Virus record (IMG/VR): IMGVR_UViG_2675903313_000009
DNA: 64,000 nt
Source: a virus
Lineage: Duplodnaviria; Heunggongvirae; Uroviricota; Caudoviricetes
Strand: one strand, 5' to 3'
Below, one piece after another: positions 28,379 through 33,986 of the stretch. The first letter of the stretch is position 1. Each line of letters begins with the position of its first letter. The notes under the pieces are model-generated. The model was not told the origin of the DNA. It was given only the letters and a program-made list of their open reading frames with translations, and made no database searches. The position numbers and the translations under genes are program-made.

Positions 28379-29452
28379 ATGGCAAAAGGAAAATCCGCAC
28401 TGGCACTTGCTCTGAAAAAGAAAATCGGTAGCAACGACGAAATTCAGAAAGTAACTCATTGGATTGATACAGGCTTTCCACCGTTAAACAAAGCTATTTC
28501 TGGTCGTTACGATGGCGGCTTCCCATGTGGTCGTATCGTCGAAGTATTCGGTCCTCCAAGTGCAGGGAAAACGTTCCTTGCAACAGCAGCGATGATCTCC
28601 GCTCAAAAACAAGATGGTCTGGCGGTATTCCTCGATCATGAAAACAGTTTTGACGTTGGCCTGGCTGTAGCCAATGGCCTGAACGCAGATGAGGATGACG
28701 GTCAGTGGGTATACAAGCAGCCTGACACCTTCGAAGACTCTGTAGAGTTGATCGGCACAATACTTAAATTGGTACGTGATGAAGAGCTTATCCCTGAATC
28801 AGCACCTATCTGTATCGTGGCTGACTCACTTGCGTCTATGGTTCCGAACTCCAAAGCCGAGAAGTTCGAAAAGATGGCTGAAGGCACTGCCAAAGACAAA
28901 GATCAGCTAAACATGAACGACAATACGGCACTGGCTCGTGCGACAAGTGCGAACTTCCCTACTCTGGCTTTGTGGGCACGCAAATACAACGCCTGCATCA
29001 TCTTCTTGAATCAGGTTCGCACAAAAATCGGTGTAATGTTTGGCGACCCTACTACGTCGCCAGGTGGAGATTCACCGAAGTTCTACGCTTCTGTACGTAT
29101 CCGTCTTGGTGCATCGGTGATGAAGGATGGTAAAGAGAAGATCGGCCAGGACGTAGGCGCAGAATGCATCAAAAACAAAGTTGCACCACCGTATGGCAAA
29201 TGCACCTGGAAATTCTACTTCGATCCTACTCGTGGCCTCGACGTTATCGAATCGCTCGTCGAGTACATGCTGGAAGAAGGATACCTGCCAAAGAACGCCA
29301 GCGGGCGAGTTGAAATTGGTGACAAGAAATACACCAAATCGCAGATCGTCGAGATGTATCGGGAGAAGCCACTGGCTGAAATCATTGCGGCTTTGCAGGC
29401 AATCGACGACCGAAGAGCAAAAGACAACCCCACCGAGTCAGTAGAAGAGTAA
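28379..29452 (+). CDS. RecA-like recombinase
   Basis: GRIVEVFGPPSAGKT Walker A, FLNQVRTKIGVMFGDPTTSPGGDSPKFYASVRIRLG and KNKVAPPY parallel E. coli RecA. Confidence 0.9.
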   Translation: MAKGKSALALALKKKIGSNDEIQKVTHWIDTGFPPLNKAISGRYDGGFPCGRIVEVFGPPSAGKTFLATAAMISAQKQDGLAVFLDHENSFDVGLAVANGLNADEDDGQWVYKQPDTFEDSVELIGTILKLVRDEELIPESAPICIVADSLASMVPNSKAEKFEKMAEGTAKDKDQLNMNDNTALARATSANFPTLALWARKYNACIIFLNQVRTKIGVMFGDPTTSPGGDSPKFYASVRIRLGASVMKDGKEKIGQDVGAECIKNKVAPPYGKCTWKFYFDPTRGLDVIESLVEYMLEEGYLPKNASGRVEIGDKKYTKSQIVEMYREKPLAEIIAALQAIDDRRAKDNPTESVEE

Positions 29453-29456
29453 ACAC

Positions 29457-29482
29457 AAGGCGTCCACAGGACGCCTTTTTTA
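29457..29482 (+). terminator. rho-independent terminator
   Basis: stem aaggcgtcc/ggacgcctt followed by T6. Confidence 0.75.
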
Positions 29483-29544
29483 TCTCTTGAAAATATATAA
29501 GTACTTACTTATTATTTTCGCATAACAACCACATAGGAAAACAC

Positions 29545-29745
29545 ATGATCAAAATCTATCTATTGGCAGTAGCCACAGGCGTTTCAGTGGCTCTCATCTA
29601 CGGTTTACTGGTTCCGTCGCTGATTTCTACCAAGAGTGATTTAGCCGTCATGTTTGGAGTTATCGTTGGTTTTGGTGCTCCTGTAATCGGTCTTATTGCT
29701 GGTCGTAAGTTTATCAACTCATTAATCAAAGCAAAGGGGAAATAA
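29545..29745 (+). CDS. small two-TM membrane protein (partner of SPFH lipoprotein)
   Basis: 66 aa, two hydrophobic helices; sigma70-like promoter TTGAAA-N17-TATTAT upstream. Confidence 0.55.
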   Translation: MIKIYLLAVATGVSVALIYGLLVPSLISTKSDLAVMFGVIVGFGAPVIGLIAGRKFINSLIKAKGK

Positions 29746-29748
29746 GTA

Positions 29749-30579
29749 ATGAAGAAAGGTTTACTTGCAGTTGCTCTGGCGGCTATTTGCACAATGGGTC
29801 TTACTGGCTGTGATCGCGTGGAGCCTGGATACGTTGGCATCAAAGTAAACAAATTAGGTGAAGACAAAGGGATCGGTGAAGTGGTTGGCGTTGGTCGCCA
29901 ATGGACAGGTCTTAACACCGAACTTTACGTATTCCCGACCTTCAAACAAATGAAGACCTACGACGAGCCGTTCACATTCCAGATGAGTGACGGTACTGCT
30001 ATTGGTCACAAAATTGGCGTTGCGTATCTGGTTAATCGTGACAAGGTAACGACGGTGTTCCAGACCTATCGCAAAGGCGTAGACGATATCACCGAATCAG
30101 ATCTGCGTCAGAAAATTGCCGACTCTCTAAACCGTTTGGCCAGCCGTATGACCACTGACTCATTTATCGACGGTGGTAAGGCGCAATTGCTGGACAACGC
30201 ACTGAAAGACATTCAGAAAGAGATGTCTCCGGTTGGTATTGAGGTACTGAGCCTGTCATGGGTTGGAAAGCCTGATTACCCAAAAACCGTCATTGAATCT
30301 ATCAACGCCAAAGTAACGGCTAACCAGCGTACTCTGCAACGCCAGCAGGAAGTTGAACAGCGTAAAGCTGAGGCGAATATGCTACGTGAACAGGCTAATG
30401 GTGAAGCTGATGCTATCCGTGCTCGTGCGCAAGCAGAAGCAGACGCCATTCGTCTGCGCGGTGAAGCTCTGCGTCAAAACCCGAACGTTATGGAGCTGGA
30501 AGCCATCAATAAATGGAATGGCCAGTTACCGCAGTACATGACTCAAGGGGCTAACACTCCTTTCATTACAGTGAAATAA
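29749..30579 (+). CDS. SPFH/band-7-like lipoprotein
   Basis: lipobox LTGC; central domain then Ala/Glu/Arg-rich coiled-coil tail (QRKAEANMLREQANGEADAIRARAQAEADAIRLRGEA) typical of the band-7 family. Confidence 0.6.
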   Translation: MKKGLLAVALAAICTMGLTGCDRVEPGYVGIKVNKLGEDKGIGEVVGVGRQWTGLNTELYVFPTFKQMKTYDEPFTFQMSDGTAIGHKIGVAYLVNRDKVTTVFQTYRKGVDDITESDLRQKIADSLNRLASRMTTDSFIDGGKAQLLDNALKDIQKEMSPVGIEVLSLSWVGKPDYPKTVIESINAKVTANQRTLQRQQEVEQRKAEANMLREQANGEADAIRARAQAEADAIRLRGEALRQNPNVMELEAINKWNGQLPQYMTQGANTPFITVK

Positions 30580-30594
30580 CTCCCCTTAAAAGTT

Positions 30595-30622
30595 CAGGCG
30601 TCCAGTTGGACGCCTTTTTTAT
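30595..30622 (+). terminator. rho-independent terminator
   Basis: stem caggcgtcc/ggacgcctt followed by T6. Confidence 0.75.
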
Positions 30623-30641
30623 CGCAATTATCTTATTAAGA

Positions 30642-32190: not shown

Positions 32191-32237
32191 ATGCAAACTG
32201 ACTGCGGCTCGTTCCGCAGTCATATTTCATAGTCGTC

Positions 32238-32770
32238 ACCGCTGACAGCATACACAATCAACTACCGCTGATAGCATATCGAGAGTCTATATCACCGCTC
32301 ACAGCATACTTTACTCGATTTTTTACCGCTGGCAGCATACTTAAGACATTGCATGAATAATGTGTACCGGTATGGGTATAACCAGAACAAAATTACCGCT
32401 GGCAGCATACGAAGGTCTGACATATACCATTAATTACCGCTGATAGCATATCCAAACAAAAATTCCTCAATAAAACACCGCTGACAGCATACGTTCTATC
32501 AGGGAGCAGCAGGCAATAAATGCCTTTCACTACAAGCAATCAGCGCAATAGCAATAGAATGTTAGTGAGCGCAAACCTATATGGAATGCACTCTTCGAGG
32601 TTAGTAACCACTGGGGAGGTATGACAGAGCATTGAGTGGTGATAGATGATTTACCGCTCACAGCATACGTTTATCTCACTATACCGCTGGTAGCATATCT
32701 TTAACCGTTCACAGCATACTTTTCAGAAAAATAGCCGCTGATAGCATACATTTCACCGCTGACAGCATAT
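32238..32770 (+). repeat. iteron array downstream of repA (incA-like copy-control locus), 12 copies
   Basis: 16-bp direct repeats ACCGCT(G/C)NYAGCATAY at 32238, 32264, 32294, 32325, 32395, 32436, 32477, 32653, 32683, 32704, 32734, 32755. Confidence 0.8.
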
Positions 32771-33864
32771 CAAAGCAGTTTGAGACTATTGGAAAGGATC
32801 TCAATCATCTTGATATTTTCAGGCGTCAAATTCTGCGAAAGTTCGGTTATCTTGTTGATAATGTTCTGTTTGGCATCAATTTCCCCAGCTTTCTCATCTG
32901 GTTTTTTGGGTTCGATGTCTTCAGGTTTTGGCGGTGCGACTTTGAGTTTTGGATTGCGGCTGTGAATCTGGATATAGATCGACCGCCCTCGCTTAATCTC
33001 GCTGTATTCGAGATAGCCCAAATCTTGGAGAGCTTTTAAGCCGTTACGTATAGTCTGATTCTGCGAGCTGACATTCCTGCTACTCAAATTGAGTCGCGCA
33101 CGTAATCGAGCAAGCGATACCGGCGCAGGCTTGGTTGGAAGACTTTCGATGAAGGTGTACAGAGCCTGTGCTGTTTCTTTGCGTGGTAGCTTATTGATAA
33201 CCTTTAACTGCAAAAGAACCTTATGGTCAAAGCGATATAGTTCGGCCAGCTTCGGTTCTGCATAGAACACCACCGTATCTTTCTGCTCGTTGTAGTCCAC
33301 GCTATTGATGAGGTGCACCATCAGAAGCGAGATCTTGTTAGAGCCGTCGACATTCTTTTCTTCATACGTTCTCTGAAAAGACAGAGTTGTACGCATGATC
33401 TTCAAAAGACTGTTTGTAAGCCGGTCGCGGAGTGTTTTGCGGATCTGTGACGATGGATAGCCACAAAACTTCGCAAATTTCGTGATGCTTAACTCGACAC
33501 GACCGTTAGGTTCGCCGTATTCTGCCAGCGAACGCACAACGCCCACCCACGTTTTGAAATCATGATCCATGTCGAGACGAGGACCGGTTATCTTGATATC
33601 GGAATAACCTTCAGAACGGGCTACTTCGAGCTGAACAAGCTCCTTTGAAGCATCGATCTCATTTGGCTTATTACGCTTGCTGTATTTTGTCCCCTTGAGC
33701 GTGGGCACGAACAACCCCAGCCGCATCAACGCAATTGGTTGGACTGTATTGTTGCTATTAGGGACAAGTTCCCCTGTGTACAATTCAAGGGAACCTTCTT
33801 CAAAGTTGTCGAGATTATCTTCTACTTCTTTGTTATTTTTACCTTTTTTATTTTTTGTGGACAT
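32770..33864 (-). CDS. repA: iteron-binding replication initiator (RepA/Rep3-like)
   Basis: 364 aa basic protein flanked on both sides by iterons; ATG at 33864 preceded by aaagg; ORF open to 33984. Confidence 0.7.
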   Translation of the reverse strand: MSTKNKKGKNNKEVEDNLDNFEEGSLELYTGELVPNSNNTVQPIALMRLGLFVPTLKGTKYSKRNKPNEIDASKELVQLEVARSEGYSDIKITGPRLDMDHDFKTWVGVVRSLAEYGEPNGRVELSITKFAKFCGYPSSQIRKTLRDRLTNSLLKIMRTTLSFQRTYEEKNVDGSNKISLLMVHLINSVDYNEQKDTVVFYAEPKLAELYRFDHKVLLQLKVINKLPRKETAQALYTFIESLPTKPAPVSLARLRARLNLSSRNVSSQNQTIRNGLKALQDLGYLEYSEIKRGRSIYIQIHSRNPKLKVAPPKPEDIEPKKPDEKAGEIDAKQNIINKITELSQNLTPENIKMIEILSNSLKLL

Positions 33865-33884
33865 GTGGACACCTTTGTCATTCA

Positions 33885-33986
33885 ACCGCTGACAGCATAC
33901 TTGATTTGCCGCTGGCAGCATACCAAAAACAGTTGGCAGCATACGGCGAACCGTTGACAGACTATCAATTACCGCTGGTAGCATAC
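33885..33986. repeat. origin-proximal iterons (incC-like), 3 intact plus 2 degenerate
   Basis: accgctgacagcatac, gccgctggcagcatac, accgctggtagcatac plus partial copies, immediately upstream of repA. Confidence 0.75.

Follow-up and report, generated by a model that had tools for sequence, protein, structure and literature searches.

A two-gene cassette of an SSU5-type phage-plasmid encodes a predicted SPFH lipoprotein and its small membrane partner

The window analysed here is a stretch of 64,000 nucleotides from the virus record IMGVR_UViG_2675903313_000009 (Caudoviricetes). Between positions 29485 and 30623 it carries a moron-type accessory operon of two genes, which is present or absent as a block among near-identical plasmids. 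The first gene encodes a 66-amino-acid (aa) protein with two predicted transmembrane (TM) helices, and the second a predicted lipoprotein of the SPFH/Band_7 family. The same gene pair recurs in unrelated phages, virulent and temperate. We tentatively propose that it acts in superinfection exclusion, and four other explanations are weighed below where the evidence on them arises.

Results

The cassette is a discrete and dispensable unit

The features of the cassette and of its left border are as follows (positions in the window; ORF, open reading frame).

29485..30623 (no strand assigned): 1139-bp insertion/deletion unit (promoter, two ORFs, terminator), absent from a 99%-identical plasmid
29457..29483 (+): intrinsic terminator closing the exonuclease-recA unit; 9-bp G+C-rich stem, ACA loop, U6 tract
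29487..29515 (+): putative cassette promoter; -35 TTGAAA at 29487-29492, 17-nt spacer, -10 TATTAT at 29510-29515
29535..29539 (+): Shine-Dalgarno sequence AGGAA, read from the sequence, 5 nt before the ATG of the small ORF
29545..29745 (+): 66-aa small membrane protein with TM helices predicted at about residues 3-23 and 32-53
29749..30579 (+): SPFH/Band_7 lipoprotein, 276 aa; Pfam PF01145, PHROG 200
29749-29811 (+, codons): predicted signal peptide and lipobox LTG-C21; +2 residue Asp
29815-30375 (+): SPFH core, residues 23-209, from the Pfam Band_7 match
30283-30477 (+): single uninterrupted 65-residue helix, residues 179-243, in the AlphaFold2 (AF2) model
30596..30623 (+): cassette terminator; 8-bp stem, AGUU loop, U6 tract (hairpin plus tail to 30621)

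The limits of the unit were given by the E. coli plasmid pEco_M21170_105, whose flanks are 99% identical to the window and from which the SPFH gene is absent. At its junction, the recA stop codon is followed by a single terminator, whose ACA loop is that of the hairpin at 29457-29477, then by GGACGCCTTTTTTATC, and then by the window sequence from 30624 onward. Klebsiella relatives also have a single terminator and no cassette. In the window, GGACGCCTTTTTTATC forms a 16-nt direct repeat that bounds the cassette (left copy 29469-29484, right copy 30608-30623). Its two copies are the 3′ halves of the upstream terminator and of the cassette terminator, and the indel boundaries can slide inside the repeat. 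Since a near-identical plasmid does without it, the unit is discrete and dispensable. Among complete E. coli genomes the downstream flank was found in 203 plasmids, of which 195 have the whole cassette, so that this dispensable unit is strongly retained. We conclude that the cassette is a moron-type two-gene accessory operon of a phage-plasmid. Its anatomy is textbook-like for a moron except in base composition, which does not deviate: the G+C content of the cassette (0.461) matches that of the window (0.455), and no compositional signature of foreign origin was found. A preliminary description, made from the window alone, had presented this segment as a self-contained cassette, and the exact 1139-bp indel agrees with the coordinates it gave.

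The same description held that the cassette is bracketed by two strong terminators and driven by a near-consensus promoter, TTGAAA-N17-TATTAT, and both signals were recovered. The promoter, found at the position proposed, matches 10 of 12 consensus positions and is the top sigma-70 match in the 20-kb neighbourhood, where the others reach at most 9/12 and where the total count of sigma-70-like matches is below that of shuffled sequences. The terminator hairpins at 29457-29477 and 30596-30615 have folding energies of -14.7 and -15.1 kcal/mol (z scores -7.1 and -5.7, 0/200 shuffles as stable), and a U6 tract follows each. The motif GGCGTCC-N3-5-GGACGCCTTTTT occurs at only two places in the 64-kb window, with 0 expected, and these are the two terminators. 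Comparison with relatives points in the same direction. Among 26 distinct upstream sequences, neither the -35 hexamer nor the 17-nt spacing varies and the -10 reads TAT[T/C/A]AT, while the 5′ untranslated region drifts; the Shine-Dalgarno sequence of the small ORF is kept as AGGAAA or AAGGAAA, and the terminator stem of the Y. pestis plasmid pMT1 shows a compensatory change (GGCGCCC...GGGCGCC). A search of the region against Rfam returned only sub-threshold matches, both on the terminator, and no known RNA family. With a putative promoter and a terminator of its own, placed between conserved backbone genes, the cassette qualifies as the independent transcription unit that had been announced.

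The promoter spacer contains a perfect 10-bp palindrome, TAAGTACTTA, at 29498-29507. It is unique in the window, where five one-mismatch matches were counted against 1.5 expected, and reads TAAGCACTTA, TAAGTGCTTA or TAATCACTTA in relatives. A repressor site at this position was considered and rejected: relatives do not share the palindrome, which is therefore unlikely to be an operator.

The SPFH protein is a predicted inner-membrane lipoprotein with the architecture of cage formers

A profile search assigned the 276-aa protein to Pfam PF01145 (Band_7) with E=2.6e-30 and 106.2 bits against a gathering cutoff of 23.6, over profile positions 2-176 of 176, which settles in the affirmative the SPFH/band-7 identity first suggested from the letters. 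The protein also matches PHROG 200 'lipoprotein' (3e-108) and ends in a conserved C-terminal motif, EAINKWNGxLP. In the AF2 model (mean predicted local distance difference test score, pLDDT, 78), a signal helix is followed by a beta-rich and alpha/beta SPFH core and by the helix 179-243, which corresponds to the coiled-coil tail described earlier; the C-terminal 25 residues of this monomer model have low pLDDT. When the model was compared to the PDB with Foldseek, full-length matches were obtained only to cage-forming SPFH proteins (prob 1.00, 245-318 aligned columns). The highest ranks went to HflC/HflK, erlin 1/2 and prohibitin; stomatin, flotillin, major vault protein and QmcA came after them. 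Judging from profile and model, we take the protein to be a true SPFH/Band_7 protein with the full cage-former architecture, that is, core, long helix and C-terminal cap motif.

The N-terminus, MKK-GLLAVALAAICTMG-LTG-C21, reads as a positively charged n-region, a hydrophobic h-region and a lipobox of the form [LVI][ASTVI][GAS]-C, in keeping with the lipoprotein that had been predicted from the ORF at 29749-30579. Cys21 is invariant in eight phage lineages, in an alignment that extends down to 31% identity and includes N4, 4MG, TL, phiEa104 and phiCbK. The window protein continues as C21-D22-R23, and a +2 Asp is found in ~73% of 183 unique family sequences. According to the E. coli '+2 rule', Asp after the lipobox Cys means inner-membrane retention in Enterobacteriaceae. 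The +2 Asp therefore predicts that the protein stays at the inner membrane and that its SPFH domain is periplasmic, on the same side as in HflK/C; the influence of the +3 Arg on the retention signal is uncertain. An inner-membrane site of action, as first proposed, is thus likely.

An HflK/HflC ortholog was rejected, because the scores with the NCBIfam equivalogs are far under their cutoffs (TIGR01933, 18.7 bits vs 159.4; TIGR01932, 30.2 bits vs 134.4). The resemblance nevertheless allows an explanation of the cassette as an HflK/C mimic, whose periplasmic SPFH ring would capture or compete for FtsH hexamers and so shift the turnover of membrane proteins early in infection; lambda CII/CIII-type regulators, holins, LpxC and SecY would be possible targets. 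The top structural matches (HflC/HflK, erlin, prohibitin) are protease-associated cages, or cages associated with endoplasmic-reticulum-associated degradation, and are non-cytoplasmic. The best sequence matches are HflK in the PDB (E=0.007) and TIGR01932 hflC (2e-7), and the predicted periplasmic orientation is that of HflK/C. A universal target such as FtsH would also explain the strong conservation of the protein and the broad host range of the phages that carry it, and authors of phage genome papers have speculated in a similar sense. The lambda map places cIII between the immunity region and xis-int, and the pair lies, in lambdoid prophages, where lambda carries this FtsH inhibitor. However, identity to HflK/C is only 16-19% and the equivalog scores are low (30 vs 134, 19 vs 159), the N-terminal TM helix is absent, there is a single paralog and not a K/C pair, the two-TM partner has no link to FtsH, and most carriers are virulent phages that make no lysis-lysogeny decision. 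On balance we consider modulation of FtsH unlikely, although it is the foremost rival of exclusion.

Homologs in phiP27, P88 and Pseudomonas phages are labelled 'serine protease' or 'transposase fusion'. No such domain was detected in the protein, where the only families found were Band_7 and a sub-threshold Flotillin match, and we therefore treat these names as legacy mis-annotations. The 'serine protease' label persists on the SPFH gene in phiP27, P88 and Erwinia phage Pastis.

The small protein is a two-helix membrane protein predicted to be translationally coupled to the SPFH gene

The ORF at 29545-29745 does encode the 66-aa two-helix membrane protein of the preliminary description: its two hydrophobic helices are separated by a short loop, VPSLISTKSD, and followed by a Lys/Arg-rich C-terminus. 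It matches PHROG 1130 'membrane protein' (9e-26) and no Pfam family at E<=0.1. Residues P24, S28, G38 and P46 are invariant in the alignment of the family. From the positive-inside rule, both termini are expected in the cytoplasm and the loop in the periplasm, and the conserved Pro24 and Ser28 would then sit at the periplasmic end of helix 1.

A gap of 3 nt separates the small ORF from the SPFH ORF (TAA-GTA-ATG), and the Shine-Dalgarno sequence of the SPFH ORF, AAGGGG, lies at 29734-29739; this arrangement predicts that the SPFH ORF is translationally coupled to the small one. Compared with the pMT1 copy, the ratio of nonsynonymous to synonymous substitution rates (dN/dS) is 0.034 for the SPFH ORF (94% aa identity) and 0.11 for the small ORF (61% aa identity), the DNA of the cassette being ~78% identical. 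Both ORFs are therefore under purifying selection.

The two ORFs share one reading frame, with TAA-GTA between them. In other lineages they overlap out of frame in an ATGA, so stop-codon readthrough is unlikely to matter.

Two known kinds of small membrane protein were considered and rejected. An NfeD-type partner is at odds with the missing Pfam match and with a length of 66 aa, which is too short for an OB-fold. A class II holin or pinholin has a similar build, but no holin family was matched, and the neighbours of the cassette, recA and a DUF7238 gene, are not lysis genes.

The holin-like build is nevertheless what an SPFH-gated pore-former would look like. Under this explanation the 66-aa protein is a latent depolarising effector, restrained by the SPFH protein and released on superinfection, with an abortive-infection, RexAB-like outcome. 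Size, two TM helices and a highly basic tail recall class II holins, and co-translation with the SPFH protein is strict. Stomatin-type SPFH rings are known to surround channels and to regulate them (PMC12407830; PDB 9zd2, among the Foldseek matches). The partner moreover diverges more quickly (61% aa identity, vs 94% for the SPFH protein), as is often seen with antagonistically evolving effectors. On the other hand, Pfam, PHROG and PADLOC gave no holin or toxin family match, the gene upstream of the SPFH gene in TL and phiEa104 does not encode a two-TM protein, and a suicide module makes little sense in a virulent phage's own infection. We judge a gated pore-former improbable.

The gene pair recurs in unrelated phages

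The preliminary description had noted that SPFH proteins pair with small membrane partners, and at the level of gene order this holds for the phage protein. In 78/80 close viral loci, which represent at least two backbones, the partner lies directly upstream of the SPFH gene. With three divergent homologs of the partner, a Band_7 gene overlaps the partner stop codon by 4 nt in 9/9 resolved contexts. The partners of the N4-species phage AlfredRasser and of 4MG match PHROG 1130 at 2.7e-20 and 6.3e-25, and the pair is also found in the Stx phage phiP27 and in the P2-like phage P88. When 215 loci from 41 sequence groups were considered, most had an abutting two-TM small ORF, even beyond detectable homology. 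As a control, such an ORF precedes 19 of 24 SPFH genes, vs 3 of ~167 other ORFs of at least 150 aa from the same loci (~2%). The exceptions are Bruynoghevirus TL and phiEa104, whose related SPFH lipoproteins follow a different gene (for a 1-TM and a soluble protein, respectively), and phiCbK, with a larger multi-TM protein. The two-TM protein is thus a conserved genomic partner of the SPFH lipoprotein across unrelated phages. With the 66-aa protein as a single query, tblastn reaches SSU5-type phages only, and profile and context methods were needed for the others. In phiP27 (NC_003356), the 62-aa two-TM partner ORF is missing from the RefSeq annotation (locus L002, 2756-2944).

By tblastn, the SPFH lipoprotein was found in 413 of 50,697 phage records. 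A relative occurs in 373 of 5426 complete E. coli genomes (~7%). Virulent carriers include N4-like Schitoviridae, Seunavirus/PVP-SE1, Bruynoghevirus, Ounavirinae, phiCbK, Lak megaphages, crAss-like phages and Bacillus myoviruses, and the pair itself is common in the strictly virulent N4, PVP-SE1/4MG-like and phiCbK groups. The SPFH gene of these virulent phages has early or middle genes and genes of DNA metabolism around it. In lambdoid prophages the pair is located between the immunity region and xis-int, and in P2-like prophages between cox and the replication gene A; in lambda and P2, these regions are early lytic operons. A stand-alone promoter and terminator for the pair occur only in the SSU5 lineage, the integrated prophages having it within early operons.

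These contexts bear on whether the pair is a membrane-integrity or lysis-timing factor, which would stabilise the inner membrane and the proton-motive force, or sequester holins, and thereby give later lysis and a larger burst. Early expression would suit a protective role, the gene is present in N4, a phage with pronounced lysis inhibition (PMC12642591), and two reports (PMC8581546, PMC10434171) implicate bacterial SPFH proteins in membrane stress tolerance and repair. Yet in the contexts examined the pair is never beside lysis genes, its neighbours being DNA-metabolism or early genes, and none of ~60 spontaneous rapid-lysis mutants of N4 maps in the gp19/gp20 region, though null mutations there should arise easily (PMC12642591). 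A sigma-70 promoter of its own in a plasmid-prophage would also be left unexplained. A role in lysis timing therefore seems quite unlikely to us.

Additional genes accompany the pair in some lineages. In AlfredRasser, the gene directly upstream of it (locus L084, 1901-2215) belongs to PHROG 1510 'superinfection exclusion' (2.7e-51), and this gene and the pair may form one envelope-modifying module of three genes. In 4MG and Seunavirus relatives, an extra ORF for a 54-aa soluble protein (PHROG 13358; locus L085, 2329-2493) is inserted between the gp235 partner and the SPFH gene, and could be a third component in that lineage. Lambdoid prophages of Enterobacter and other Enterobacteriaceae have a conserved 135-aa ORF with no Pfam family (loci L092-L096, 3594-4001), whose end coincides with the start of the two-TM gene at the common coordinate 4001. 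In this lambdoid backbone, the ORF and the pair may be co-translated.

The window belongs to the SSU5 group of phage-plasmids

Identity to the window is 99.4% for 'Escherichia phage CMS-2020a' and 93-96% for phages Cyrano and PhiR41_1, each ~108 kb long. The annotation of Cyrano lists RepA, HicAB, a P1 Cra-like protein, UvsY, a gp32-like single-stranded DNA-binding protein and RecA. In addition, 713 plasmids match the region, including Y. pestis pMT1 and Salmonella plasmids of pHCM2 size (~106.7 kb), at ~78%. These matches identify the window as a phage-plasmid of the SSU5/pHCM2/pMT1 type, from the SSU5 group described by Pfeifer et al. (PMC7969092). The cassette is present in SSU5 itself, Cyrano, PhiR41_1 and CMS-2020a. 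It had been called phage-borne, correctly, because the window belongs to this group.

Its carriage by plasmids of pathogens, Y. pestis pMT1 and the Salmonella SSU5-type plasmids of pHCM2 size, raises the question of a host-directed lysogenic conversion, in which the lipoprotein would reach the outer membrane or vesicles and alter the interaction between host and pathogen. A precedent is PM0222 (Pmorf0222), an HflK/C-like protein from a Pasteurella multocida prophage, which is reported to be a TLR1/2 (Toll-like receptor) agonist whose deletion attenuates virulence (PMC9872710); the putative sigma-70 promoter of the cassette would also fit. However, a lipoprotein with +2 Asp is expected to stay at the inner membrane, lipoproteins stimulate TLR2 in general, and the pair is carried by many phages that are virulent or environmental and is part of early lytic operons. 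We regard such a conversion as very improbable.

The cassette follows the recA-like gene:

28379-29452 (upstream of the cassette): recA-like gene, 357 aa, without intein; Pfam RecA 2.2e-42

In Cyrano, pEco_M21170_105 and many E. coli relatives, RecA is a 779-aa protein split by an intein, which contains a homing endonuclease of the LAGLIDADG type (PHROG 9666); the annotations read 'LAGLIDADG family homing endonuclease' or 'intein-containing recombinase RecA' (loci L001, 3712-6051, and L089, 1378-3717). The recA intein is thus a second presence/absence polymorphism, directly adjoining the cassette. On the other side, at 32199-32222, a hairpin with a 9-bp stem scored as a terminator on either strand. 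It sits between the rightward genes downstream of the cassette and a leftward RepA-like ORF (32770-33984); from this position between two modules, it is likely a bidirectional terminator that separates them.

Discussion

A possible role in superinfection exclusion

We propose the following scheme, largely by analogy with the family. The SPFH protein would have its signal peptide cleaved, be lipidated, and be held on the periplasmic face of the inner membrane, where it would oligomerise into a ring or dome that fences a membrane patch, like HflK/C, prohibitin, erlin and stomatin. The two-TM partner might provide the transmembrane palisade, which HflK/C builds from its own N-terminal helices, or be the enclosed client. 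Such an enclosure would alter the interface of inner membrane and periplasm in the infected or lysogenic cell and block the DNA of later phages. The function would then be superinfection exclusion at the inner membrane, which we put forward as a tentative possibility. It would resemble, without homology, exclusion by T4 Imm (small, two-TM) and Sp (periplasmic), or by the T5 lipoprotein Llp.

Several observations are consistent with exclusion. The pair is found in both virulent phages, among early or middle genes, and temperate ones, and has in the window a putative sigma-70 promoter of its own. Incoming DNA has to pass through the compartment predicted for it. Virulent phages, too, typically have their exclusion genes among the early genes, so that carriage by such phages is compatible with this function. 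By contrast, a role restricted to the lysogen, or purely in lysogenic conversion, is unlikely, because the pair is common in virulent phages and in early operons. Finally, the N4 copy adjoins the PHROG 1510 'superinfection exclusion' gene, and the exclusion system of N4 is described as uncharacterised in a 2025 preprint on N4 lysis (PMC12642591).

Other observations weigh against exclusion. PADLOC-DB v2 contains no family matching either protein at E<=0.1, and the full-text literature yielded no functional study of a phage SPFH lipoprotein and no data on the pMT1 or pHCM2 copy. The conservation is unusual for an exclusion factor, with 94% aa identity between E. coli and Y. pestis copies at saturated synonymous divergence (dS), and the SPFH family spans phages of Proteobacteria, Bacteroidota and Bacillus. 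Together these suggest a conserved host target and not the variable ejection proteins of phages. Some phages have Glu, Ser or Asn at +2, and the membrane location of their protein may therefore be another one. The argument from the PHROG 1510 neighbour in N4 is guilt by association, drawn from an annotation, and oligomerisation, membrane side and partner interaction are predictions from the family.

Papers from 2021, 2023 and 2026 call the role of phage SPFH proteins unclear and speculate on FtsH-dependent control of lysogeny, on adsorption or on DNA entry. The paper classifying prokaryotic SPFH proteins and a 2026 survey of Pseudomonas SPFH proteins mention neither phages nor lipoproteins.

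Relation to known systems

HflK/HflC, the FtsH partners of E. coli (PDB 7vhq, 7wi3, 9cz2), share with the window protein the SPFH fold, the long coiled-coil helix and the C-terminal cap region, as well as, by prediction, an SPFH domain on the periplasmic side. They are the top structural match and the best sequence match of solved structure, and have a historical tie to phage biology through the frequency of lambda lysogenisation. The window protein differs in being lipid-anchored and not TM-anchored, in coming from a single gene, in its 16-19% identity, and in being phage-encoded and dispensable. A second likeness is to SPFH-NfeD operons (QmcA-YbbJ, PDB 8z5g; Pyrococcus PH1511-PH1510; YqiK-YqiJ; FloT-YuaF), where an SPFH gene likewise shares an operon with one encoding a small membrane protein. 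Coupling of the phage genes is tight (3-nt gap or ATGA overlap), and QmcA is among the structural matches. The phage partner, however, has no NfeD/OB-fold domain and consists of 62-70 aa with two TM helices, and the window SPFH protein is a predicted secreted lipoprotein, unlike QmcA-type proteins, whose SPFH domains face the cytoplasm.

Direct homologs, with the same gene order and coupling, are the phage pairs of PHROG 200 and PHROG 1130: N4-type gp20 with its upstream ORF, P88 gp12/gp11, phiP27 L05, SSU5, and YPO_RS00780/785 of pMT1. The other backbones embed the pair in early operons, in contrast to the stand-alone cassette of the window. T4 Imm and Sp, T5 Llp, P22 SieA and HK97 gp15 act in membrane-level exclusion, as early genes of virulent phages or as prophage morons. 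They too consist of small inner-membrane, periplasmic or lipoprotein parts, a functional analogy only, since they have no relation to the window proteins in sequence or fold, and the window SPFH protein is far more conserved. PM0222, compared here by description only, is a prophage-encoded protein of the SPFH superfamily and the sole one found with a reported phenotype, but that phenotype concerns mammalian innate immunity and vesicle secretion. As its genes are already in databases under descriptive names, the cassette does not represent a system of a new kind but an uncharacterised form of the theme of SPFH protein plus small partner: lipid-anchored, predicted to be periplasmic, with a non-NfeD partner, and phage-borne.

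Significance

SPFH scaffolds (stomatin, prohibitin, flotillin, HflK/C) are universal, and the physiological role of most bacterial members is unclear. Phages have condensed such a system to two small, strongly conserved genes, which recur in hundreds of phage genomes. The cassette also rides medically relevant phage-plasmids, Y. pestis pMT1 and the SSU5-type plasmids of pHCM2 size in Salmonella. Because there are natural isogenic plasmids that either have or lack the 1139-bp cassette, its phenotype is directly testable, and any phenotype found would annotate two large 'hypothetical' families at once, PHROG 200 and PHROG 1130.

A broader version of the exclusion proposal, which we think unlikely as things stand, is that the pair forms a minimal, self-assembling periplasmic cage, deployed early by many phage families as a general barrier to the entry of foreign DNA. 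If true, superinfection exclusion would gain a new class of very wide distribution, which might include the missing exclusion system feeding lysis inhibition in N4, and a bacterial-type SPFH scaffold would for the first time have a clear function that is easy to assay. The significance of the cassette would increase substantially if the pair were a general exclusion device of phages or a regulator of FtsH.

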